Below are positions 25,767 to 54,291 of a stretch of DNA of 64,000 nucleotides, piece by piece (position 1 is the stretch's first letter; each line of letters opens with the position of its first letter). The stretch is taken from NCBI RefSeq assembly GCF_003334355.1, contig NZ_QOWP01000008.1; one strand, written 5' to 3'. Source of the DNA: Escherichia coli (GTDB lineage: Bacteria; Pseudomonadota; Gammaproteobacteria; Enterobacterales; Enterobacteriaceae). The translations under genes were made by a program, and so were the position numbers. A model generated the notes under the pieces. It was not told the DNA's origin and ran no database searches. It saw only the letters and a program-made list of their open reading frames with translations.

Positions 25767-26186
25767 ATGGCAATGACTTACCACCTGGACGTCGTCAGCG
25801 CAGAGCAACAAATGTTCTCTGGTCTGGTCGAGAAAATCCAGGTAACGGGTAGCGAAGGTGAACTGGGGATCTACCCTGGCCACGCACCGCTGCTCACCGC
25901 CATTAAGCCTGGTATGATTCGCATCGTGAAACAGCACGGTCACGAAGAGTTTATCTATCTGTCTGGCGGCATTCTTGAAGTGCAGCCTGGCAACGTGACC
26001 GTTCTGGCCGACACCGCAATTCGCGGCCAGGATCTCGACGAAGCGCGAGCCATGGAAGCGAAACGTAAGGCTGAAGAGCACATTAGCAGCTCTCACGGCG
26101 ACGTAGATTACGCTCAGGCGTCTGCGGAACTGGCCAAAGCGATCGCGCAGCTGCGCGTTATCGAGTTGACCAAAAAAGCGATGTAA
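25767..26186 (+). CDS. atpC: F0F1 ATP synthase subunit epsilon
   Basis: 139 aa; recognised. Confidence 0.95.
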
Positions 26187-26204
26187 CACCGGCTTGAAAA
26201 GCAC

Positions 26205-26238
26205 AAAAGCCAGTCTGGAAACAGGCTGGCTTTTTTTT
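26205..26238 (+). terminator. Rho-independent terminator of the atp operon
   Basis: GC-rich hairpin aaaagccagtctggaaacaggctggc followed by a T8 run, 20 nt after the atpC stop. Confidence 0.85.
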
Positions 26239-26536
26239 ACGCGTGATCCGTCCTGAAGAGCGTTCACATAGATCCTGCTGATATAAAACACCCCTGTTTT
26301 CCCGTTTATTCATTGATCGAAATAAGAGCAAAAACATCCACCTGACGCTTAAATGAAGGTACTGCCTTAATTTTCTGCAGACAAAAGGCGTGACGATGGT
26401 CGAAAATGGCACTTTCGTCAGCGGGGATAATCCGTTATTGAACAATTTATCCTCTGTCCATTTCACGATGAAAAAAATGTAGTTTTTTCAAGGTGAAGCG
26501 GTTTAAATTCGTTCTCAAATTACAGTCAGGACGCGT

Positions 26537-27907
26537 ATGTTGAATAATGCTATGAGCGTAGTGATCCTTGCCGCAGGCAAAGGCACGCGCATGTATTCCG
26601 ATCTTCCGAAAGTGCTGCATACCCTTGCCGGGAAAGCGATGGTTCAGCATGTCATTGATGCTGCGAATGAATTAGGCGCAGCGCACGTTCACCTGGTGTA
26701 CGGTCACGGCGGCGATCTGCTTAAACAGGCGCTGAAAGACGACAACCTTAACTGGGTGCTTCAGGCAGAGCAGCTGGGTACGGGTCATGCAATGCAGCAG
26801 GCCGCACCTTTCTTTGCCGATGATGAAGACATTTTAATGCTCTACGGCGACGTGCCGCTGATCTCTGTCGAAACACTCCAGCGCCTGCGTGATGCTAAAC
26901 CGCAGGGTGGCATTGGTCTGCTGACGGTGAAACTGGATGATCCGACCGGTTATGGACGTATCACCCGTGAAAATGGCAAAGTTACCGGCATTATTGAGCA
27001 CAAAGATGCCACCGACGAGCAGCGTCAGATTCAGGAGATCAACACCGGCATTCTGATCGCTAACGGCGCAGATATGAAACGCTGGCTGGCGAAGCTGACC
27101 AACAATAATGCTCAGGGCGAATACTACATCACCGACATTATTGCGCTGGCGTATCAGGAAGGGCGTGAAATCGTCGCCGTTCATCCGCAACGTTTAAGCG
27201 AAGTAGAAGGTGTGAATAACCGCCTGCAACTCTCCCGTCTGGAGCGCGTTTACCAGTCCGAACAGGCTGAAAAACTGCTGTTAGCAGGCGTTATGCTGCG
27301 CGATCCGGCGCGTTTTGATCTGCGCGGTACGCTTACTCACGGGCGCGATGTTGAAATTGATACTAACGTTATCATCGAGGGCAACGTGACTCTCGGTCAT
27401 CGCGTGAAAATCGGCACCGGTTGCGTGATTAAAAACAGCGTGATTGGCGATGATTGCGAAATCAGTCCGTATACCGTTGTGGAAGACGCGAATCTGGCAG
27501 CGGCCTGTACTATTGGCCCGTTTGCCCGTCTGCGTCCTGGTGCTGAGTTGCTGGAAGGTGCACACGTTGGTAACTTCGTTGAGATGAAAAAAGCGCGTCT
27601 GGGTAAAGGCTCGAAAGCCGGGCATCTGACTTACCTGGGCGATGCGGAAATTGGCGATAACGTTAACATCGGCGCGGGAACAATTACCTGCAACTACGAT
27701 GGTGCGAATAAATTTAAGACCATTATCGGCGACGATGTGTTTGTCGGTTCCGACACTCAGCTGGTGGCCCCGGTAACAGTAGGCAAAGGCGCGACCATTG
27801 CTGCGGGTACAACTGTGACGCGTAATGTCGGCGAAAATGCATTAGCTATCAGCCGTGTGCCGCAGACTCAGAAAGAAGGCTGGCGTCGTCCGGTAAAGAA
27901 AAAGTAA
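26537..27907 (+). CDS. glmU: Bifunctional GlcNAc-1-P uridyltransferase / GlcN-1-P acetyltransferase GlmU
   Basis: 456 aa; N-terminal nucleotidyltransferase motif (LAAGKGTRM) and C-terminal hexapeptide-repeat acetyltransferase domain. Confidence 0.95.
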
Positions 27908-28068
27908 TTCTGGCCGGGTAATCCGGTCATCTGGGATGAGGAGATAACATAATCTCCCTCCCACAAGCAGTAACTATAAAAATAACCCCACTCTCTACAA
28001 GGCTCGGGGCGCCCGAAAAAACGGGCATACAGGTTGACCGACAACGATATAAATCGGAATCAAAAACT

Positions 28069-29898
28069 ATGTGTGGAATTGTTGGCGCGATTGCGCAACG
28101 TGATGTAGCAGAAATCCTTCTTGAAGGTTTACGTCGTCTGGAATACCGCGGATATGACTCTGCCGGTCTGGCCGTTGTTGATGCGGAAGGTCATATGACC
28201 CGCCTGCGTCGCCTCGGTAAAGTCCAGATGCTGGCTCAGGCAGCGGAAGAACATCCTCTGCATGGCGGCACCGGTATTGCTCACACTCGCTGGGCGACCC
28301 ACGGTGAACCTTCAGAAGCTAACGCGCATCCGCATGTTTCTGAACACATTGTGGTGGTGCATAACGGCATCATCGAAAACCATGAACCGCTGCGTGAAGA
28401 GTTAAAAGCGCGTGGCTATACCTTCGTTTCTGAAACAGACACCGAAGTAATTGCCCATCTGGTGAACTGGGAGCTGAAACAAGGCGGGACTCTGCGTGAG
28501 GCTGTTCTGCGTGCTATCCCGCAGCTGCGCGGTGCGTACGGTACAGTGATCATGGACTCCTGTCACCCGGATACCCTGCTGGCGGCACGTTCTGGTAGTC
28601 CGCTGGTGATTGGCCTGGGTATGGGCGAAAACTTTATCGCTTCTGACCAGCTGGCGCTGTTGCCGGTGACCCGTCGCTTTATCTTCCTTGAAGAGGGCGA
28701 TATTGCGGAAATTACTCGCCGTTCGGTAAACATCTTCGATAAAACTGGCGCGGAAGTAAAACGTCAGGATATCGAATCCAATCTGCAATATGACGCGGGC
28801 GATAAAGGTATTTACCGTCACTACATGCAGAAAGAGATCTACGAACAGCCGAACGCGATAAAAAACACCCTTACCGGGCGCATCAGCCACGGTCAGGTTG
28901 ATTTAAGCGAGCTGGGACCGAACGCCGACGAACTGCTGTCGAAGGTTGAGCATATTCAGATCCTCGCCTGTGGTACTTCTTATAACTCCGGTATGGTTTC
29001 CCGCTACTGGTTTGAATCGCTGGCAGGTATTCCGTGCGACGTCGAAATCGCCTCTGAATTCCGCTATCGTAAATCTGCCGTGCGTCGTAACAGCCTGATG
29101 ATCACCTTGTCACAGTCTGGCGAAACCGCGGATACCCTGGCGGGCCTGCGTCTGTCGAAAGAGCTGGGTTACCTTGGTTCGCTGGCAATCTGTAACGTTC
29201 CGGGTTCTTCTCTGGTGCGCGAATCCGATCTGGCGCTGATGACCAACGCGGGTACGGAAATCGGCGTGGCATCCACTAAAGCATTCACCACTCAGTTAAC
29301 TGTGCTGTTGATGCTGGTGGCGAAGCTGTCTCGCCTGAAAGGTCTGGATGCCTCCATTGAACATGACATTGTGCATGGTCTGCAGGCGCTGCCGAGCCGT
29401 ATTGAGCAGATGCTGTCTCAGGACAAACGCATTGAAGCTCTGGCAGAAGATTTCTCTGACAAACATCACGCGCTGTTCCTGGGCCGTGGCGATCAGTACC
29501 CAATCGCGCTGGAAGGCGCATTGAAGCTGAAAGAGATCTCTTACATTCACGCTGAAGCCTACGCTGCAGGTGAACTGAAACACGGTCCGCTGGCGCTGAT
29601 TGATGCCGATATGCCGGTTATCGTCGTTGCACCGAACAACGAATTGCTGGAAAAACTAAAATCCAACATTGAAGAAGTTCGCGCGCGTGGCGGTCAGTTG
29701 TATGTCTTCGCCGATCAGGATGCGGGTTTTGTAAGTAGCGATAACATGCACATCATCGAGATGCCGCATGTGGAAGAGGTGATTGCACCAATCTTCTACA
29801 CCGTTCCGCTGCAGCTACTGGCTTATCACGTCGCGCTGATCAAAGGTACCGACGTTGACCAGCCGCGTAACCTGGCAAAATCGGTTACGGTTGAGTAA
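28069..29898 (+). CDS. glmS: Glutamine-fructose-6-phosphate aminotransferase GlmS
   Basis: 609 aa; N-terminal MCGIVG (Ntn-hydrolase catalytic Cys2) and two SIS domains. Confidence 0.97.
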
Positions 29899-29904
29899 TA
29901 AATG

Positions 29905-29934
29905 GATGCCCTGCGTAAGCGGGGCATTTTTCTT
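29905..29934 (+). terminator. Rho-independent terminator after glmS
   Basis: Hairpin gatgccctgcgtaagcggggcatc-like stem followed by tttttctt, directly after the glmS stop. Confidence 0.8.
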
Positions 29935-30105
29935 CCTGTTATGTTTTTAATCAAACATCCTGCCAACTCCATGTGACAAACCGTCATCTTCGGCTACTTT
30001 TTCTCTGTCACAGAATGAAAATTTTTCTGTCATCTCTTCGTTATTAATGTTTGTAATTGACTGAATATCAACGCTTATTTAAATCAGACTGAAGACTTTA
30101 TCTCT

Positions 30106-30147
30106 CTGTCATAAAACTGTCATATTCCTTACATATAACTGTCACCT
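30106..30147 (+). promoter_or_regulatory. Pho boxes (PhoB binding sites) of the pstS promoter
   Basis: Tandem CTGTCATA(A/T)A-type direct repeats: ctgtcataaaactgtcata ... actgtcacc, about 65-105 nt upstream of the pstS ATG; further weaker ctgtca repeats upstream (~30040-30100). Confidence 0.85.
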
Positions 30148-30193
30148 GTTTGTCCTATTTTGCTTCTCGTAGCCAACAAACAATGCTTTATGA

Positions 30194-31252
<1,059 letters not shown>

Positions 31253-31262
31253 TAAAACTCCA

Positions 31263-31298
31263 GGCCGGGTGCGGTGTTTTACGCCGCATCCGGCATTA
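31263..31298. repeat. REP (palindromic unit) element in the pstS-pstC spacer
   Basis: ggccgggtgcggtgttttacgccgcatccggca imperfect palindrome typical of E. coli REP sequences. Confidence 0.75.
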
Positions 31299-31335
31299 CA
31301 AAATGACTTTGTAAACGCGTTTAACTGAAGAGTAA

Positions 31336-33188
<1,853 letters not shown>

Positions 33189-33204
33189 TATTGCTGACAC
33201 GGTT

Positions 33205-33330
33205 TTCCCCTCACCCTAACCCTCTCCCCAGAGGGGCGAGGGGACCGACCGAGCGCCTTTTTGACTCTGTACACGGTTAACACTTTGCCGGATGCGGCGT
33301 GAACGCCTGATCCGGCCTACGGTAAGCCTG
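33205..33330. repeat. Composite extragenic repeat in the pstA-pstB spacer (C-rich palindrome plus REP)
   Basis: cccctcaccctaaccctctccccagaggggcgagggg imperfect palindrome followed by the REP-like gccggatgcggcgtgaacgcctgatccggcctac. Confidence 0.7.
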
Positions 33331-33331
33331 A

Positions 33332-34144
<813 letters not shown>

Positions 34145-34158
34145 TTCAGGAGTGCGTT

Positions 34159-34884
34159 ATGGACAGTCTCAATCTTAATAAACATATTTCCGGCCAGTTC
34201 AACGCCGAACTGGAAAGTATCCGCACGCAGGTGATGACCATGGGCGGCATGGTGGAGCAGCAGCTTTCTGATGCAATCACCGCGATGCATAACCAGGACA
34301 GCGATCTGGCGAAGCGCGTGATCGAAGGCGACAAGAACGTCAACATGATGGAAGTGGCGATCGATGAAGCCTGCGTGCGCATTATCGCCAAACGTCAGCC
34401 GACGGCGAGCGACCTGCGACTGGTTATGGTGATCAGTAAAACCATTGCCGAGCTGGAGCGTATTGGCGACGTGGCGGACAAAATCTGCCGTACTGCGCTG
34501 GAGAAATTCTCCCAGCAGCATCAGCCGTTGCTGGTAAGTCTGGAGTCGCTGGGCCGTCATACCATCCAGATGCTGCACGACGTGCTGGACGCGTTCGCGC
34601 GGATGGACATTGACGAAGCGGTACGTATTTATCGTGAAGATAAAAAAGTCGATCAGGAATACGAAGGTATTGTTCGTCAACTGATGACCTACATGATGGA
34701 AGATTCGCGTACCATTCCGAGCGTACTTACTGCGCTGTTCTGCGCGCGTTCTATCGAACGTATTGGCGACCGCTGCCAGAATATTTGTGAGTTTATCTTC
34801 TACTACGTGAAGGGGCAGGATTTCCGTCACGTCGGTGGCGATGAGCTGGATAAACTGCTGGCGGGGAAAGATAGCGACAAATAA
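34159..34884 (+). CDS. phoU: Phosphate signalling regulatory protein PhoU
   Basis: ORF-track 247 aa trimmed to [14 protein letters not shown] (241 aa); recognised. Confidence 0.93.
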
Positions 34885-35079
34885 TTCACCAGACAAATCC
34901 CAATAACTTAATTATTGGGATTTGTTATATATAACTTTATAAATTCCTAAAATTACACAAAGTTAATAACTGCGAGCATGGTCATATTTTTATCAATAGC
35001 GCATTGCTATTTTCTCTGCACGCAATTAAATTAATTTCCGAACCTGGATGTTCGTTATAAAAACCATTAATAAATGACT

Positions 35080-43060
<7,981 letters not shown>

Positions 43061-43136
43061 AACATAAGGCCGGATGTATGAATTACGCTCCGGCCTGTTC
43101 TCCAACGGTTAATTACAAATAGATAAAGTATCCCGC

Positions 43137-43610
43137 TTAACTTAAAGAGTCTGTTTCAGGACATGAAATATCCAATCCGGGCAGACGGGTAATGATTTTG
43201 CTCATCACCACACCTGCCAGCAATGCAGGAATGATGCGGACAACGAGACTGTCACCAGAAAGAATGTTTTCAAACAACTCCGAGGAAGCCATGCCCTTAA
43301 TATGTACAATAACTGCACAATAGATCTCGGTGATAACGACGCCACCTATGCCACCAGCCAGACAACGATAATTTTTCTGTGACCCGATCTTTTCCGGCAG
43401 ACAGGCGACCATCACGCCGGTTAACAATGCAGGAATAGCTCCCGTAGTAATCGACAATAAGAGAAACAATGGAAGTACCTGTATTATTACCAAAAGAACC
43501 AGCGGTTCTTTTGCGAAGAATATGTAGAGGACAAGAAACAGAACACCAATTAACGGTCCTAAAACCGCAAAATAAAGTCCGTGATGTATTACCCGACGTG
43601 AAACAGACAT
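43137..43610 (-). CDS. cbrB: Inner-membrane protein CbrB (YieI)
   Basis: 157 aa, 4-5 predicted TM helices; recognised as CbrB. Confidence 0.8.
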   Translation of the reverse strand: MSVSRRVIHHGLYFAVLGPLIGVLFLVLYIFFAKEPLVLLVIIQVLPLFLLLSITTGAIPALLTGVMVACLPEKIGSQKNYRCLAGGIGGVVITEIYCAVIVHIKGMASSELFENILSGDSLVVRIIPALLAGVVMSKIITRLPGLDISCPETDSLS

Positions 43611-43676
43611 ATCAAACTCCCTTTACTTACCTTTGAGCGCCAATTTAAGCGGGGTAAGTGAAGGGAGTGTGAAGAA

Positions 43677-44342
43677 CTATGCCGTAATATCCCAACCACG
43701 CGCTTTCCACAGTTCCGGTAACTGCGAAAGATGGGTAAAGGTGGTGACTTTCGGGTGAACGATCGGCTTATTGTGCGGGTCAGCGCAGAAGTAAAACACT
43801 TCCATTCCGGCATCTATCCCTGATTGAGCGCCGGCGCTGGAGTCATCGACCAGAATGCAGTTTTCAACGTTCACATTCATCGCTTTTGCCGCATGGAACA
43901 TTAATGCCGGATCGGGCTTCCAACGCTGGATATCGTAGCCGCTGAACAGTTTTTCCGGGAAGTAGTGCAGCATGTTGAGCTTACCCAGCGAATGCTGCAT
44001 TTTGCTGACCGGACCGTTAGAGACGACGCACATCGGCACGTTAATGCTCGCCAGCAATTCGTTCGCGCCTGCGATGTCCGCAAGTTCGGTATCAAACAGA
44101 CGTGCTACTTCTGCGCGGTAAACGTGCTCGGCATCGGCCTGGACCATCGTCACGCCCTGTTCTTTACTGATGATGTCGATGATTTCGTAGAGTTTTACGC
44201 CTTTAAAACGGGTAAAAATCTCCTCCAGGTCAACGTTAATGCCAAATTCCCTGAACATCGTGACATAGGCGCGAGAGCAAATGACCTCGCTATCGACCAG
44301 CGTACCGTCGCAGTCGAAAAATACCGCTTCTATCTGGGACAT
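43677..44342 (-). CDS. yieH: HAD-superfamily phosphatase YieH
   Basis: 221 aa; HAD motif I FFDCDGTLVDSE near the N-terminus; recognised. Confidence 0.88.
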   Translation of the reverse strand: MSQIEAVFFDCDGTLVDSEVICSRAYVTMFREFGINVDLEEIFTRFKGVKLYEIIDIISKEQGVTMVQADAEHVYRAEVARLFDTELADIAGANELLASINVPMCVVSNGPVSKMQHSLGKLNMLHYFPEKLFSGYDIQRWKPDPALMFHAAKAMNVNVENCILVDDSSAGAQSGIDAGMEVFYFCADPHNKPIVHPKVTTFTHLSQLPELWKARGWDITA

Positions 44343-44508
44343 GTCTTTCCTTTATCGTTAGTTTAACGTTTTCGTCATGCCAATTCACATGACGCAATCG
44401 TTGCCGTATAAGCAAATACAATGAAAAAAAGTTATCTTCAGCCGTCCATATTGTCTCATTTTGGTATACGATAGCGACGGATTTTCCCTCCTTGTTCGGA
44501 AATAGATA

Positions 44509-45846
44509 ATGAGTCAACAACACACAACCCAGGCTTCTGGCCAGGGGATGCTGGAACGCGTGTTTAAACTGCGCGAACATGGCACGACGGCACGGACCGA
44601 AGTGATCGCCGGTTTTACCACCTTCCTGACGATGGTTTACATCGTTTTTGTTAACCCGCAAATTCTTGGCGTTGCTGGCATGGATACCAGCGCCGTCTTC
44701 GTTACTACCTGTCTGATTGCTGCATTCGGCAGTATTATGATGGGACTGTTTGCTAACCTGCCAGTTGCACTGGCACCCGCTATGGGCCTGAATGCGTTCT
44801 TCGCTTTTGTGGTTGTGCAGGCGATGGGCTTGCCGTGGCAAGTCGGGATGGGCGCAATCTTCTGGGGGGCGATTGGTCTGCTGTTACTGACGATTTTCCG
44901 CGTTCGCTACTGGATGATTGCCAACATTCCGGTAAGTCTGCGTGTGGGCATCACCAGCGGTATCGGTCTGTTCATTGGTATGATGGGACTGAAGAATGCA
45001 GGTGTGATTGTCGCTAACCCGGAAACGCTGGTCAGCATCGGTAACCTGACTTCTCACAGCGTGCTGCTGGGGATCCTCGGCTTCTTCATCATCGCTATTC
45101 TGGCCTCGCGCAACATTCACGCGGCGGTGCTGGTTTCTATCGTGGTGACGACGCTGCTGGGCTGGATGCTGGGTGATGTCCACTACAATGGCATCGTTTC
45201 TGCGCCGCCGAGCGTAATGACTGTCGTGGGCCATGTAGATTTAGCCGGGTCGTTTAACCTCGGGCTGGCAGGGGTGATTTTCTCTTTCATGCTGGTCAAC
45301 CTGTTTGACTCCTCCGGTACGCTGATTGGCGTGACCGATAAAGCAGGCCTGGCGGATGAGAAGGGTAAATTCCCGCGCATGAAGCAGGCGCTGTATGTCG
45401 ACAGTATCTCTTCCGTGACCGGTTCGTTTATCGGTACTTCTTCCGTTACGGCTTATATTGAGTCCTCTTCCGGCGTATCGGTTGGCGGTCGTACCGGTCT
45501 GACGGCAGTGGTTGTTGGTCTGCTGTTCCTGCTGGTTATCTTTCTGTCGCCGCTGGCGGGGATGGTGCCAGGCTACGCTGCAGCTGGTGCGCTGATTTAC
45601 GTTGGCGTGCTGATGACTTCCAGTCTGGCACGCGTGAACTGGCAGGATCTTACTGAATCTGTTCCGGCGTTTATTACCGCCGTGATGATGCCGTTCAGCT
45701 TCTCGATTACCGAAGGTATCGCGCTGGGCTTTATCTCCTACTGCGTGATGAAAATCGGTACCGGACGTCTGCGTGATCTAAGCCCGTGCGTAATCATCGT
45801 TGCGCTGCTGTTTATCCTGAAGATTGTCTTTATCGACGCTCACTAA
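44509..45846 (+). CDS. adeP: Adenine permease AdeP (YieG/PurP), NCS2 family
   Basis: 445 aa polytopic transporter; recognised. Confidence 0.9.
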   Translation: MSQQHTTQASGQGMLERVFKLREHGTTARTEVIAGFTTFLTMVYIVFVNPQILGVAGMDTSAVFVTTCLIAAFGSIMMGLFANLPVALAPAMGLNAFFAFVVVQAMGLPWQVGMGAIFWGAIGLLLLTIFRVRYWMIANIPVSLRVGITSGIGLFIGMMGLKNAGVIVANPETLVSIGNLTSHSVLLGILGFFIIAILASRNIHAAVLVSIVVTTLLGWMLGDVHYNGIVSAPPSVMTVVGHVDLAGSFNLGLAGVIFSFMLVNLFDSSGTLIGVTDKAGLADEKGKFPRMKQALYVDSISSVTGSFIGTSSVTAYIESSSGVSVGGRTGLTAVVVGLLFLLVIFLSPLAGMVPGYAAAGALIYVGVLMTSSLARVNWQDLTESVPAFITAVMMPFSFSITEGIALGFISYCVMKIGTGRLRDLSPCVIIVALLFILKIVFIDAH

Positions 45847-45899
45847 AATCGATAGCGCGTTAAAAACCCGCCATGCATGATTGCTGGCGGGTTTTTTAT

Positions 45900-46466
45900 T
45901 TAGATCTTAACTCGCTGAATAAACTCACCAAATGCGGTCAATTGCCCGGTCAGGTGGTCCAGCGTACCCTGATCAATCACTTCTCCGGTTTGCGGATCAA
46001 CTTTGTTCTGAATCACGCCGCCCATAAATTCCGGCTTGTTCATCACCATTGCATCGAGGAAAACCAGAATCTGGCGCAGGTGATACTGACAGCGCGCGCC
46101 GCCAATCACGCCCATTGAGCTGGTCTGAATCAATACCGGTTTACCGGCCAGCGGTTGATCCGGCAGGCGGGAAAGCCAGTCGATGGCATTTTTCAGCCCA
46201 CCCGGTATCGAGTAGTTATATTCCGGCGTGACGATCACCACACCGTCAGCCTGACGGATCTGTTCCGCCAGAGCTTCAACCGTTGCTGGAAAACCTTCTT
46301 CCTGCTGTACGTCAGCGTCATACAAGGGAATGTCGGCAATGGATGGTAACGCATTGACTTCCATGCTCGCCGGAGCAATTTTCGGCAGGGTACGTGCAAC
46401 CATGCCATTAAATGAGCCTTTGCGCAGGCTCCCCAGTAACGTAACCACCTGCAATTTTTCAGACAT
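45900..46466 (-). CDS. chrR: NADPH-dependent FMN reductase / chromate reductase ChrR (YieF)
   Basis: 188 aa; flavodoxin-like NADPH-dependent FMN reductase motif (LLGSLRKGSFN); recognised. Confidence 0.9.
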   Translation of the reverse strand: MSEKLQVVTLLGSLRKGSFNGMVARTLPKIAPASMEVNALPSIADIPLYDADVQQEEGFPATVEALAEQIRQADGVVIVTPEYNYSIPGGLKNAIDWLSRLPDQPLAGKPVLIQTSSMGVIGGARCQYHLRQILVFLDAMVMNKPEFMGGVIQNKVDPQTGEVIDQGTLDHLTGQLTAFGEFIQRVKI

Positions 46467-47393: not shown

Positions 47394-48353
47394 TTATGCC
47401 ATCGACGCGTAAAGGTTTTTAATGGTTTCCCGTAACCAGACGATCTTCGGATTATGGCTGTTCCGTTTATGCCACAGCAGGGTAAAAGGAACTTCCAGCT
47501 TTTTTTGCTGGCTTTCGTCAAACGGGAGAGGAAGAGCAACCAACGGCAGTTGATGGAGTTGATTGTAGTACTGACAGTAGCGCGGCGCGGTCGCCAGTAG
47601 CAGATTGTCGGGTTGCGCTGCCATAAACAGTGACTGCTCAAATTCCGGCAGGCTCATAGCAATCGTGCGTTCGCGCCCCAGCTCCTGTAACACATTGTCC
47701 AGCGCCCAGGTGTCGCTCTGTTCCCAGCAAATGCTGATATGCGGATAACGTAAAAAGGTGTCCAGATTCCACGTTTCATGCAGTGCCGGATGATCTTTGC
47801 GTAACCAGACGCAGGGTACATCACTAAACAGCACTTCATAATCAATGGCTAACGGTAGCGAGCTTAACAGCTCCCGCGAGCGAGGATGGCTTTCGCGACC
47901 GGAAAAACCAATATCCACTTCACCACGAGTAATGGCATCTAAGGAATCGTAATCCCAGTTACGTAGTTTGATGGTCGCCTGCGGGTAACGTTGGTAGATC
48001 CGTTTCGACAGCGCATTAAGCATGATCATCATCAGCGGCGATTCCGCCGCCAACTCAAACTTCAGGCCGCGCGGTGTCTGGTGGTGCGGTTTATCCAGCA
48101 GCAGATTGCTCATTTGCATCCATTCCGCCAGATTTTGCTCCATGCTGACCATTAGCGGTGTGGGCGACAGGCCCAGCGGTGAGTTCACAAAGAGCGGGTC
48201 GTCAAACCACGCTCTTAACTTTGCCAGCGACTTACTCACCGCTGAAGGGGTCACGTTCATCCGCTTCGCCGCTTTGGTCACGCTGCGCTCCTGCATCAGC
48301 AGTTGCAGACAGAGCAGCAGATTGAGATCAAGCGTGGTGATGGATTTCTTCAT
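47394..48353 (-). CDS. yidZ: LysR-family transcriptional regulator YidZ
   Basis: ORF-track 322 aa trimmed to [40 protein letters not shown] (319 aa), an LysR-type HTH. Confidence 0.88.
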
Positions 48354-49503
48354 GAGCGGCAACGGGGCGTCCAGGCGCGACGAACATAATCAGCAACAGG
48401 CTCACTATGCTACAGGCAATCAGAATCCCGATCAGCATATTCCATGCGCCGATACCAACCACCGCTGCCAGCCAAATCCACAGTGACGAACCGCAAACCT
48501 GCGCAATACCTAAGGTCGAGCTGGCTACGCCCGCGCGTAATGAAAATGGTCCTAACGCCTGACTCATCGCTACGCCAAAACCTACCGAGAAACCGGCGCA
48601 AATCAGCGTGATACCAAACAGAGAAACCGCATGGGAAGGTGAAACGGCAAGGGTGATCCCCGCTGCAAGGAATAACACCTGCGAGGTGATCATCAACGTA
48701 CGTGGCTTAAAAATTCCCAGCGCAAATGGCGTGGAGAATGAAACGGTCATGCTGACGCCAGCGGTCAACGCCATAATGGTGGCGTATTCTCCGCGCTCAA
48801 AACCCATGATTTCCATCAGCAATACCGGCGATGTATTGACGAAAGTGAGGATCACCGAAACGCTGAGGGTGGTGATAACAACACGGCTGAGGAAAAACCG
48901 ATTAAGCAGCGACTCGCTATTTTCTCGTGGTTTGTCCGAAGCAGCGGGGGACGCTGGGCGCGTTTCTTTTAAAATAAACAAAGACAACATCAGTACCGCG
49001 ATGCCCATCATTGCCATCGCCCAGAACAGACTCTGCCACGGGAATTTAAGCATAATCAGATGTCCGAGCACTGGCGCTAACACCGGAATGATGCAGGTAA
49101 TACCGTTGAGTAATGACAGCACTTTAGCCCGACGTCGATCATCCAGCGTGTCGCGCAAAATGGCGAACGCCACTACGTAACAACAGCCTGCGCCCAACCC
49201 CTGTAGAAATCGGCCTGCAAGAAATAACGTGCTGGTTTCAGCCAGTGAACAGAACACCGAGGCAATAATAAATAGCGCCGCGCCGGGTATGGCGACCGGC
49301 TTTCTCCCTGAACGATCGGCCACTTTACCGGCAAATAACATCGCAGCTGCCATCCCCGCCAGATATACGGAGAACGCAATATGCAACTGCGCTTCGCTGG
49401 CATTGAGATCGGCGGTGATGCGCGGTAAACCAACGAGGTACATATCAATCCCGGCGGGATAAAGTAAAACCAGGGCAAAACTACAAATTAAAAAGCGGGA
49501 CAT
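48328..49503 (-). CDS. mdtL: MFS multidrug efflux transporter MdtL (YidY)
   Basis: 391 aa, 12-TM MFS; recognised; 3' end overlaps the yidZ start. Confidence 0.9.
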
Positions 49504-49635
49504 GGGCTAAAGCGTCCTGATAGTAAGGTGACGCAAAGCATACGTGGTGAAGGAGAATCAGGCGAGTTGCCATTTGGACAAAAGAGATTTCCTGACAGGC
49601 AAGAAGCCAGCGAAATGGCTGGCTTCTTGAAGGGA

Positions 49636-50883
49636 TCAGCCAAATTTAGGTAACACGTTAAAGACGTTACCGAACCAGCATAAAATTACGGTTATACCAA
49701 AGAGAATGACAATCGCCGGAATAAGATTGCCGCCCCAGACCGTGAACATCTGATTGGGAAACTTCTTGCGAGCTTTGATTGCAAGCACTGCGGGAATAAT
49801 GACCGCCCAGATGGTGGCGCACAGCCCGGCACCGCCGATCCCGTAAATAAAGCCGTTCGGGAAGATCAGATACAACAACGCAGGTGGCAGGAAGGTTAAC
49901 AGCACGGTTTTGAAACGCCCGCCGTGGGAGTTATCAATCTTAAACAGGTCCGCCAGATAATCGAACAACCCCAGCGTGACACCAAAGAACGAACTGGCAA
50001 CAGCTAAGTTAGAGAACACCAGCAGGCAAAACTCGATAATGCCGTGCTGTTTGGTGCCGAGGAACGATTTCACCAGCGAATCAACGTTGCCGCCTGAGGA
50101 GATTATCGCCTTAAAGCTTTCGCGCGGAATATTCCCCATCGTGCAATAGAGCCAGAAGAGATAAATCACCAGCGCCAGCAGCGAACCAAATACCACGCTT
50201 TTGATTAACTTATCTTTGCGTTTTCCATAGCAAATAATCAGGCTGGGAATATTGCCGTGGAAACCAAATGACGCCAGACACACCGGCAAAGCCATAAAAA
50301 TATACGGGAAGTAAGACGTTCCCGCAGTGGTGCTGGTGGCATCGCGCAGGATGGAGTAATCGACCTGGAAGAAGAAAGAACCAAACACGATCACAAAGGA
50401 GATAATCTTCAGCCCGAGGAACAATGAGGTAATGCGACTGGCGGCTAACGAACTTATCCACAATACGCTGGCAACGAAAATGGCTGTGCAGATCCCGACA
50501 ATACGTGGATTAGCGTGATAGCCCAAATTCATTGATATCGTTTCACTAATGATCGCACCATTAGCAGAGATATAGGCATAAGTGAGGATATAGAGAACGA
50601 AGGCAACGGTAATACCGCTGATAATGTTCCAGGTGTTACCGATTAAATCTTTGGTGATGGTGTTAAAACTGGAGCCGACAGGATAATTTAAATTTGCTTC
50701 TAATAACAATAACCCGGAATGAAGCATTGAAAACCAGGCAATGATAAGGATAAAGGCACCCCAGAAAAACCAGGCACCGGCAAGATCAACAGGTAAAGCA
50801 AACATACCTCCACCAATTACTGTACCTGCTATAACCATAACACCCCAAAATGCAGAGTGCTTTTTTTCAGCTTGATCAGTCAT
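49636..50883 (-). CDS. tnaB: Low-affinity tryptophan permease TnaB
   Basis: 415 aa aromatic amino-acid permease; downstream of tnaA in the same operon. Confidence 0.93.
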   Translation of the reverse strand: MTDQAEKKHSAFWGVMVIAGTVIGGGMFALPVDLAGAWFFWGAFILIIAWFSMLHSGLLLLEANLNYPVGSSFNTITKDLIGNTWNIISGITVAFVLYILTYAYISANGAIISETISMNLGYHANPRIVGICTAIFVASVLWISSLAASRITSLFLGLKIISFVIVFGSFFFQVDYSILRDATSTTAGTSYFPYIFMALPVCLASFGFHGNIPSLIICYGKRKDKLIKSVVFGSLLALVIYLFWLYCTMGNIPRESFKAIISSGGNVDSLVKSFLGTKQHGIIEFCLLVFSNLAVASSFFGVTLGLFDYLADLFKIDNSHGGRFKTVLLTFLPPALLYLIFPNGFIYGIGGAGLCATIWAVIIPAVLAIKARKKFPNQMFTVWGGNLIPAIVILFGITVILCWFGNVFNVLPKFG

Positions 50884-50973
50884 GATGCCACCTTTAGAGG
50901 AAGGCTATTTTTGTTATTGAGGATGTAGGGTAAGAGAGTGGCTAACATCCTTATAGCCACTCTGTAGTATTAA

Positions 50974-52389
50974 TTAAACTTCTTTCAGTTTTGCGGTGAA
51001 GTGACGCAATACTTTTGGTTCGTAGGTAAAGGTTAATCCTTTAATATTCGCCGCGTTCTCTTTCACATGTTTAAAGGCTTCAATAATGAAGTCCATATGT
51101 GTTTGAGTATATGTTGCGCGCGGAATGGTTAAACGCAGCAGTTCAGCCGGGCATGGCAGTTGTTTACCGGTTTTCGGATCGCGGCCTAACAGGAAAGAGC
51201 CAATTTCTACCGCACGGATACCGGCGACTTTATACAGCTCGCACGCCAGCGCCTGTGCCGGGAACTGGTCTGCCGGGATATGCGGCAGCAGTTTACCGGC
51301 ATCAACGAATGCCGCGTGACCGCCCGCCTGCTGGCAGACAACGCCAATCTCTTCCAGACCATCGACCAGATACTGTACCTGCGCGATACGATAAGCCAGC
51401 CAGTCGAGATTCATGCCGTCATACAGACCTACCGCCAGACGCTCCATCGCGCCGCCTTCCAGGCCGCCATATGTCGGGAAGCCTTCCTGCACCACGCAAA
51501 GGGTTCTGCACTCGGTGTACACATCAAAGAAGCTGTCGTCTTTCATGCACAGCAAGCCGCCCATCGGCACCATCGCATCTTTCTTGGCGGACATCGCCAG
51601 CATATCGGCATATTTGTAGGTTTCGCGGGTGATCTGCTCGATGGTCCAGTCTTTGTATTCTGCTTCACGCTGCTTGATGAAATAGGCGTTTTCAGCAAAG
51701 CGTGCGGAGTCCATTACCACCGGAATATCGTATTTCTTCGCGATGCTGTACATCGCTTTTAAGTTTGCCAGTGAAACCGGCTGACCACCTGCAGAGTTAC
51801 TGGTGATGGTTGCAACGATATACGGCACGTTATTCGGGCCAACTTCTTCAATACCGCGTTCTAATCCTTCGAGGTCAAAGTTGCCTTTAAAGTCGTAACG
51901 CACGCCCGTATCGAAGGCTTCTTTGATATAGACGTTACGCACGGTACAGCCGTTAATCTGGCTATGGCCCTGCGTGGTATCAAAGAAATAGTTAGAGAAT
52001 GCCACCATTTTGCTGCGATCCAGGCCTTTTTCCTGCTCGCGTTTTTTAATCAGTACCGGAATATAGATTTGCTCTGCGCCACGGCCCTGGTGAGTCGGAA
52101 TAGTGTATTGATAACCAAAGATATTTTTCACTGACTCGGCTAACGCATAGTAGCTGCGGCTGCCGCTGTAGGCTTCGTCGCCGCGCATCATCGCGGCCTG
52201 CATACTCTGCGTCACCGCCCCGGTGCCGCTGTCGGTCAGTAAATCGATAAACACATCTTCGCTATCCAGCAGGAACGGGTTCATACCGGATTTAATAATT
52301 GCTTCTTCACGATAAGCGCGAGTAGTACGTTTTACTGGCTCAATAACACGAATGCGGAACGGTTCAGGGAGATGTTTAAAGTTTTCCAT
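50974..52389 (-). CDS. tnaA: Tryptophanase TnaA
   Basis: ORF-track 476 aa trimmed to [18 protein letters not shown] (471 aa); PLP-dependent beta-eliminating lyase. Confidence 0.95.
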
Positions 52390-52609
52390 TACATAATCCT
52401 TCATTTATTTTAATTACAGTGATCCCTGTGAATATTACATCTGCAATATCCATTAATTCGCCATGTATATATACAAGCACCATCATTTACTAAAATAAGT
52501 AAATAAACGAGAGATGGCCTTTGCAAAAGGCAAAATTAAGATATAGCAAACTAATCGTTCACATTGAATCTAATCGGTTTGGCTCTGGTGATGGCTACAG
52601 AAGGGTAAA

Positions 52610-52684
52610 TTAAGGGCGGTGATCGACAATCTTATTGTCGATATTGAACCATTTTGAGGTCACACATATATGTAAGATATTCAT
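52610..52684 (-). CDS. tnaC: tna operon leader peptide TnaC (24 aa, MNILHICVTSKWFNIDNKIVDHRP)
   Basis: Reverse complement of ~52610-52684 encodes exactly the 24-aa TnaC peptide with the critical Trp12 and C-terminal Pro24 followed by a stop; not in the ORF track because under 60 aa. Confidence 0.9.
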   Translation of the reverse strand: MNILHICVTSKWFNIDNKIVDHRP

Positions 52685-52759
52685 AATGCACTTATCCTCG
52701 AAAGACACGAGGCTACAGTATAATACTCAAGAATTTTGTCTATTCTAAAATTGTTTAAA

Positions 52760-52775
52760 TGTGAATCGAATCACA
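52760..52775. promoter_or_regulatory. CRP binding site of the tna promoter
   Basis: tgtgaatcgaatcaca, a near-perfect TGTGA-N6-TCACA palindrome upstream of tnaC. Confidence 0.75.
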
Positions 52776-52926
52776 ATCGTTCGGGGAGCAATATTAAATG
52801 CTTTTTTTTAAGATTATAAATTACGTAAGAATTTTAATGTTTAAAAAAAGGGTTGAGGAATAATAGGAGTGCTAACAATGAAGCGAAGCCGCATCTGACA
52901 GTCAGAATACGGCTTCGTAAGCGCGG

Positions 52927-54291
52927 TTACTTACCAATACAGAAGCTGGAGAAAATCCGCCCCAGCAGGTCGTCTGAAGTAAATTCCCCGGTGATTTCGC
53001 TTAAGTTCTGCTGTGCCAGACGCAACTCTTCCGCCAGCAGTTCACCTGCCCAGGCTCCCAACAGTTGCGCTTTGCCCTGTTGTAGATGTTCCGCTGCCTG
53101 TTCCAGCGCCTGTAGGTGGCGACGACGCGCCAGGAAGCCGCCTTCCATGTTGGTGTCAAAGCCCATGCTCTGTTTGAGATGGTTACGCAGCACCTCCACG
53201 CCTTCACCTGTCCTTGCCGAGAGACGAATTAACGCGTGACCGTTCACTTCACTCATTCCCAGCGTTTCGCCGGTGATATCGGCTTTATTGCGCACCACGG
53301 TGATCGGCAGTTTCGCTGGCAGACGGGCGATAAATTCCGGCCAGATCTCTGCCGGATCCACGGCGTCTGTTGTGGTGCCATCGACCATAAACAGCACGCG
53401 GTCGGCCTGTTCAATTTCCTGCCACGCGCGCTCGATACCAATACGTTCCACTTCGTCACTGGCTTCACGTAGCCCAGCGGTATCGATGATATGCAGCGGC
53501 ATTCCGTCAATGTGGATATGCTCACGCAGCACGTCACGTGTGGTTCCGGCGATATCAGTTACGATTGCTGCTTCACGGCCCGCCAGCGCGTTTAACAGGC
53601 TCGATTTACCGGCGTTAGGACGTCCGGCAATCACCACCTTCATCCCTTCGCGCAACAAACTACCCTGACGTGCTTCAGCACGCACTGCATCGAGATCGGC
53701 AATCACGTCATTAAGCTGGGCTTCAATTTTGCCGTCGGAGAGGAAATCGATCTCTTCATCAGGGAAATCAATTGCCGCTTCGACGTAAATGCGCAAGTGG
53801 GTGAGGGCTTCTACCAGATGATTAACCCGTGCGGAGAATGCGCCTTGCAGCGAGTTAAGTGCCGAACGGGCCGCCTGTTCCGAACTGGCGTCGATAAGAT
53901 CGGCAATCGCCTCGGCCTGGGCTAAGTCAAGTTTATCGTTAAGAAACGCGCGTTCGGAAAACTCACCAGGGCGAGCAATCCGCAGGCCGGGAATGGTCAG
54001 AATGCGTTTTAACAGCAGGTCGAGGATCACCGGACCGCCATGACCTTGCAGTTCCAGCACATCTTCGCCGGTGAACGAGTTCGGGCCAGGGAACCATAGC
54101 GCAATCCCCTGATCGAGCACGCTGCCGTCGGCGTCTTTAAACGGAAGATAATCGGCGTAGCGCGGCTTAGGCAGTTTACCCAGCACGGTTTCGGCAACTT
54201 CACGGGCTTTGAAGCCGGAGATGCGCAGGATGCCAACGCCGCCACGTCCCGGAGGCGTGGCCTGGGCTACGATAGTGTCATTATCGCTCAT
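52927..54291 (-). CDS. mnmE: tRNA modification GTPase MnmE (TrmE)
   Basis: 454 aa; G-domain motifs ([13 protein letters not shown]) and C-terminal CIGK. Confidence 0.95.

Follow-up and report, generated by a model that had tools for sequence, protein, structure and literature searches.

The cbrC-less (CFT073-like) variant of the yieK-cbrB interval in Escherichia coli: a probable old deletion spread by recombination

Introduction

What has become of cbrC between cbrB and yieK, and whether its absence is a loss or its presence elsewhere a gain, is the question raised by the locus in this report. In Escherichia coli K-12, cbrC (yieJ; 588 bp, encoding 195 aa) sits between cbrB (yieI) and yieK. 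In the stretch of E. coli DNA analyzed here (64,000 nucleotides, referred to as the window), the stop codons of yieK and cbrB are separated by exactly 76 bp, which the preliminary description of this DNA had put at about that figure. That description gave the K-12 order as yieH-cbrB-cbrC-yieK, correctly so. It took the difference to be a clean, strain-specific indel of about 0.6 kb whose polarity could not be told from one sequence, and saw in it no new system but a polymorphism of presence and absence.

The last of these views agrees with a published yieJ-less structure. The locus was typed in 174 strains by Sankar et al. (2009, PLoS Genet; PMC2646131), who distinguished two structures among bgl-positive strains, one K-12-like, with yieI and yieJ, and the other CFT073-like, with yieI only; they also described a replacement type, Z5211-5214, and noted that IS elements are often inserted in bglHIK-yieJI. 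The cbrC-less presence/absence polymorphism is already published, having been first described in 2009. What our analysis adds is the polarity (loss), the exact junction, two junction sub-types with their frequencies, and the recombinant context.

Results

The window is collinear with K-12 in BLAST across all 64 kb, and the only large differences are cbrC and one IS2, the latter private to the K-12 derivative chosen for comparison. Between phoU and yieH, it contains the bgl operon with bglH, yieL, and yieK, collinear with K-12 from bglG to yieK. The earlier statement that all other genes keep K-12 order and length is accordingly right for order, but not for length. The yieK gene (42344..43060, plus strand, stop codon included), read from the list of open reading frames and belonging to the glucosamine-6-phosphate deaminase family, encodes 238 aa instead of 240; the indel list against K-12 shows a 12-bp deletion at 43054 (AGCACTCGGTTA in K-12), by which the last two residues are gone. 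From the same list, cbrB (43137..43610, minus strand, stop codon included) is intact and encodes 157 aa, compared to 155 in K-12 and ST131, owing to a 6-bp indel at 43474. Strain 720632 has an identical locus in which both genes are annotated with the same assignments, CbrB homologs match Pfam PF26516 (CBRB), and cbrB of the window has one difference from the allele of strain M15. The 12-bp yieK deletion is common to strains 1916D18 and EC02 but absent in mip270_05, despite the same cbrC-less junction there, so it is secondary, later than the loss of cbrC, and on these alignments is a second, independent small change.

We confirmed that cbrC is absent from the yieK-cbrB interval of the window (43061..43136), the site of the gene in K-12. 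A tblastn search of the 64-kb window with K-12 CbrC gave no match (best E = 1.3), nor did blastn-short with K-12 cbrC, and no PF03691 (UPF0167)/CbrC domain is encoded in the yieK-cbrB interval according to the list of open reading frames and tblastn. A CbrC in an overlooked frame or elsewhere in the window, against which the preliminary description had cautioned, was not found by these means, and the alignment of the interval has cbrC present in K-12 between yieK and cbrB and missing here.

The junction was compared with three cbrC-carrying alleles, those of M15, K-12, and an ST131 isolate. In the window, 633 bp of the cbrC-carrying allele are swapped for 18 nt, CAACGGTTAATTACAAAT, at 43103..43120; this filler is delimited by breaks in the BLAST alignment to K-12 at 43102/43121 and by the junction alignments. 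The net loss of 615 bp is made up of 585 nt of cbrC codons and the 30 nt that precede the gene, its ribosome-binding site among them; the missing stretch starts 16 to 18 nt past the cbrB stop. The size given earlier for the indel was sound, but the word clean was not quite apt, given the diverged filler. Aligned to the spacer that separates the cbrC stop from the hairpin in cbrC-carrying alleles, the filler is identical at about 8 of 16 positions, a poor fit that leaves the exact breakpoints ambiguous and a clean deletion in one step uncertain. The event behind the junction may have been other than a simple one-step deletion. In the junction alignment, no convincing direct or micro-homology repeats were found at the deletion breakpoints.

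A conserved hairpin with a 12-pair stem, one bulge, and a 5-nt loop lies at 43067..43096, 40 nt from the cbrB stop. The arms of the ggccgga-N14-tccggcc element noted earlier, at 43068-43074 and 43089-43095, are indeed present and fold stably (ΔG of -18.8 kcal/mol; z = -2.9 against shuffles). The hairpin had been linked to the junction; comparison with cbrC-carrying genomes instead finds the same hairpin there, and it lies, together with the TGTTCTC after it, at an equal distance from yieK in M15, K-12, and ST131, that is, in every cbrC-carrying allele examined. It is therefore an older element between the convergent genes, and the possibility that it is a deletion scar was ruled out for the same reason. 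A REP element was also ruled out, the hairpin being single-copy: a 121-bp junction query that includes it matches a median of 1 and a maximum of 3 places per genome. The tails of the hairpin are UUAUGUUUU on the minus strand and UGUUCUCC, weak, on the plus strand, and a simple consensus terminator scan gave no call. With UUAUGUUUU after the stem on the minus strand, the cbrB(-cbrC) transcript plausibly ends at the hairpin, which may be a terminator for the convergent yieK transcript as well.

The frequency of the variant was determined in 5,426 complete E. coli genomes. At least 80% of cbrC is covered in 3,192 of them (~59%; the full-length class), about 358 have partial or split matches only, 707 (about 13%) match the 121-bp junction query contiguously and are cbrC-less, and about 1,220 match from yieH onward only, the bgl-yieLK-cbrBC block being absent. 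With the junction present in 707 genomes, the indel is no peculiarity of one strain. The 3,550 genomes in which cbrC matches at all and those with the junction together make 4,257, where 4,262 match the locus, a tally consistent with cbrC-less genomes having no cbrC elsewhere; our direct search covered the 64-kb window. In O157:H7, the block is replaced by an island annotated with T3SS effectors such as EspY4. The one partial-cbrC genome that we inspected (L020, NZ_CP091427.1) has cbrC interrupted by the IS66-family element ISEc22. The gene is being lost by several routes, the deletion allele and an IS split. Two clusters of truncated CbrC (P0165 and P0210), considered as a third arrangement, were rejected as contig-end or low-quality fragments of the normal locus.

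The 707 cbrC-less genomes fall into two sub-types. A 61-bp probe for the filler of the window found 149 genomes, 52 at an identity of at least 99% and 96 belonging to a sub-type with AGATAAAAAATCC, which by subtraction leaves 558 with the filler of the B2 sub-type. This filler, CAACATTTAATGACAAAT, is identical to that of the window at 15 of 18 positions and was seen in clone D i2, ExPEC XM, and A32.

Mismatch density indicates that the cbrC-less allele of the window lies in a mosaic recombination patch (~42400..45400) inside a K-12-like backbone. From 33000 to 42400 the closest sequence is K-12, with 0 to 2 mismatches per kb. From 42400 to 43700, a segment that includes the 3' half of yieK, the junction, cbrB, and the cre tag, the closest are the B1-type genomes M15, 1916D18, and mip270_05 (0 to 4 mismatches per 200 bp, with more in the junction bin), and from 43700 to 44400, in yieH, the closest are B2-type genomes (3 to 5 per 200 bp, compared to 28 to 61 per 200 bp against K-12). 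K-12 is again closest from 45400 to 46200 (0 per 200 bp; 0 to 2 per kb). Mismatches against K-12 number 1 to 4 per 200 bp from 46200 up to 47000, compared to as many as 61 per 200 bp inside the patch. Clustering of the island with type II (B2) is contradicted by the segment from 40600 to 42400, which has 0 to 1 mismatches per 200 bp to K-12 and 4 to 14 to ST131 and clone D i2. Judged by this pattern, the deletion allele in the window sits in a mosaic patch of ~3 kb that was imported into a K-12-like island. Divergence from K-12 is also raised at 26000-32000 and 48000-53000 (16 to 37 mismatches per kb, compared to 0 to 2 elsewhere), and these patches are presumably other recombination imports. 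A 2-bp deletion relative to K-12 is located at 26243, in the glmU-atpC intergenic region.

The yieH gene (43677-44342) occurs within E. coli as two deeply divergent allele classes that differ at 121 positions in 666 bp. About 2,300 genomes, B2 strains and O157:H7 among them, have alleles at least 90% identical to that of the window, and the other class, at 80 to 90%, accounts for 3,107 genomes, to which K-12 and B1 strains belong (~82% among the matches listed). Identities among the matches listed jump from 94.1% to 82.8%, and for the range of 80 to 95% the numbers are band counts only. Two outgroup loci, designated L007 and L010 and described below, are 75 to 78% identical to both classes, and one class may have been imported from a divergent lineage.

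The existence of two junction sub-types raises the possibility that the B2-type and non-B2-type cbrC-less alleles arose separately, by recurrent independent deletions at one hotspot. The bases right beside the filler speak for such an origin, since in each cbrC-less allele they have the SNPs of its own lineage, and a single origin consequently needs either very short retained tracts or an ancient polymorphism; the observation by Sankar et al. that bgl island types are largely clonal (PMC2646131) points in the same direction. The breakpoints of the two sub-types are identical, however, and their fillers are far more like each other than like the cbrC-carrying spacer of either lineage, to which they are identical at ~7 to 8 of 16 positions. 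Nor is there an evident direct repeat at the breakpoints to drive recurrence. On balance, we regard recurrent deletion as unlikely.

Whether cbrC was lost here or gained in K-12, held undecidable in the preliminary description, can be decided in favor of loss, since outgroup loci carry orthologous cbrC at the same place. The first, L007 (GCA_026341455.1), is from an enterobacterial genome that aligns to the window at ~81% identity across 11.6 kb, a distance too great for it to be E. albertii, an identification that we considered and rejected. It encodes a CbrC homolog (P0124; 78% amino acid identity) in the gene order yieF-adeP-yieH-cbrC-phoU-pstBACS. The nucleotide identity of its cbrC to that of K-12, 81.7%, is between those of adeP (84.2%) and yieH (76 to 78%), and because its divergence falls within that of these neighbors, the gene would have been inherited vertically, as an ortholog. 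The 150-nt gap between yieH and cbrC (L007:5851-6000) contains the Shine-Dalgarno region of cbrB (AAGGGAGTTTGATA), the final ~27 nt of that gene, and the stretch between cbrB and cbrC; collinear as it is with the E. coli cbrC-carrying allele, the gap reads as the remnant of a cbrB deletion. L007 is in this respect a mirror-image loss, with cbrC kept and cbrB gone. The hairpin after its cbrC (L007:6600-6630; GCCCGGTAAATGTGAATTACCGGGC) has the loop core ATGTGAATTAC in common with the K-12-type hairpin of E. coli, where the window has ATGTATGAATTAC. Its orientation relative to cbrC is opposite to that in E. coli, which may reflect a flipped palindromic terminator or coincidence.

The second outgroup locus, L010, is Superficieibacter-like (members of its cluster are named Superficieibacter) and has the order yieH-esterase-cbrC-ADP-ribosylglycohydrolase-phoU, and in E. 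albertii yieJ is reported to adjoin phoU (PMC2646131). With cbrC carried by all three, the yieH-cbrB-cbrC arrangement would be older than E. coli and the state of the window a derived loss. For CbrB, a query against genome contigs gave, among the matches listed, a 274-bp E. coli contaminant contig and no outgroup. The homologous proteins, at least 120 matches listed, are near-identical ones of E. coli/Shigella, with no outgroups among the matches listed and three exceptions on contigs of <700 bp that are labeled Ligilactobacillus salivarius or Acinetobacter baumannii or are nameless. Short contigs with E. coli-type CbrB (96 to 97% identical to that of the window) occur in assemblies labeled Alkalicoccobacillus porphyridii (L006), L. 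salivarius, and A. baumannii, and those in these three foreign-labeled assemblies are almost certainly E. coli contamination.

The reverse polarity would make the cbrC-less state ancestral, with cbrC arriving in the ancestor of the strains that carry it, at the site between cbrB and the hairpin. Sankar et al. did propose horizontal acquisition of yieI and yieJ, on the grounds that the two genes were stated in 2009 to have no enterobacterial orthologs outside E. coli and Shigella (PMC2646131), and the uniformity of cbrC in E. coli speaks for gain as well: its identity between K-12 and ST131 is at least 98.5%, against differences of 3 to 7% in the adjoining cbrB and yieK. The statement about orthologs is superseded by the homologs found in current databases. 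CbrC orthologs occupy the same yieH-phoU interval in both outgroup loci and, according to PMC2646131, in E. albertii; the divergence of outgroup cbrC matches that of flanking core genes; and in one outgroup the cbrB-cbrC intergenic region and what is left of cbrB are collinear with the cbrC-carrying allele of E. coli. Gain in K-12-like strains is largely refuted by this outgroup synteny, and we consider it very improbable.

A swap in place of a loss, with a small RNA, a micro-ORF, or some other replacement element in the gap, is hardly credible. The filler is not obviously derived from cbrC-carrying sequence, but these 18 nt are the only unique sequence, the hairpin is common to cbrC-carrying alleles, the 76-bp gap has, as noted earlier, no open reading frame of at least 20 aa except the ends of yieK and cbrB, and an Rfam search of 42900-43750 gave no family at E≤1. 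An assembly or sequencing artefact can be dismissed, with the same junction present in 707 independently assembled complete genomes and the variant detected earlier by PCR (PMC2646131).

Discussion

Taken together, the results make it highly probable that the window carries the cbrC-less (CFT073-like, yieI-only) variant, derived from an old 615-bp deletion that was spread by recombination and imported here in a patch of ~3 kb. Ancestrally, cbrB-cbrC would have been located downstream of yieH, under a CreBC-controlled promoter (cre tag), and would have ended at the hairpin common with the convergent yieK. The deletion would have taken the ribosome-binding site of cbrC and all 195 of its sense codons, leaving at most the stop codon. 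What stayed would be a diverged spacer of 18 nt and, both intact, the hairpin and cbrB. The deletion allele would then have persisted and entered different E. coli backgrounds through homologous recombination, reaching the strain of the window in the mosaic patch within its K-12-like (type Ia) island.

The nearest known arrangement is the CFT073-like variant, with which the window agrees in having the bgl operon, bglH, yieL, and yieK adjoining phoU, yieI present downstream, and yieJ absent; its breakpoints are also the ones seen in B2 strains, for example clone D i2, with similar fillers. The window differs in that its island is K-12-like (type Ia) and not type II/B2 outside the patch at 42400-45400, and in having the extra 12-bp deletion at the yieK 3' end. 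PMC2646131 presents the yieJ-less structure by the example of CFT073, and the accessible part of its text notes no yieJ-less islands of A/B1 type. Compared with the cbrBC (yieIJ) CreBC-regulon unit of K-12, the window has the same cre tag, cbrB, and downstream hairpin, its CbrB being 96% identical in amino acids to the K-12-type CbrB cluster and its cbrB differing from that of K-12 at 14 nucleotides, but it is without the second gene, cbrC, whose product appears in the title of the work on colicin E2 tolerance cited below. The Z5211-Z5214 island type (O157:H7 and others) is an alternative state of the same yieH-phoU hotspot, and cbrC is absent there too; in that type, however, the whole bgl-yieLK-cbrBC block is swapped for other genes, whereas the window keeps all but cbrC.

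The regulation of cbrB may have survived the loss of its neighbor. A cre tag, TTCACACTCCCTTCAC, was found by pattern match upstream of cbrB at 43658..43673 on the minus strand. Its pattern, TTCAC-N6-TTCAC, is the reported CreB-binding consensus (Avison 2001, Cariss 2008). The 64-kb window has no other match, and at least one match occurs in 18 of 100 shuffles. Since the tag is intact, cbrB should still be CreBC-controlled, now as a single-gene unit with its transcript predicted to end at the hairpin 40 nt past its stop.

As to function, the paper of Cariss et al. (2010, J Bacteriol 192:3329) names YieJ (CbrC) in its title on colicin E2 tolerance, as given in bioRxiv 10.1101/615310. The text of that preprint attributes the tolerance to over-production of "YieI", citing the paper titled with YieJ; "YieI" is probably a slip there, one that leaves the gene assignment ambiguous. 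Our searches of the literature on UPF0167, PF03691, and colicin E2 tolerance found nothing further on mechanism. The strain of the window would be without the CreBC-dependent colicin E2 tolerance attributed to CbrC/YieJ.

Selection might also have acted on the locus, in that the cbrC-less allele could have been kept, and repeatedly moved by short tracts, because the loss of CbrC, or cbrB alone, helps in some niches. Room for such an advantage is left by the occurrence of the junction in both B2 and non-B2 backgrounds, by the 3-kb mosaic import, and by the neighboring yieH with its two classes ~18% apart; we offer it as a doubtful proposal, to which we give a low probability. If it is true, the yieH-cbr boundary would be a small polymorphism, balanced or recombination-hot, with a link to the biology of colicin or CreBC.

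Old deletion followed by spread through recombination, the history that we favor, makes the locus a tidy example of a deletion allele that would have been carried between backgrounds by homologous recombination. The significance of the finding is mostly for annotation: the accessory gene cbrC is dispensable, with only ~59% of complete E. coli genomes having it at full length, and strains with the cbrC-less allele are predicted to lack the CreBC-dependent colicin E2 tolerance that has been attributed to CbrC.
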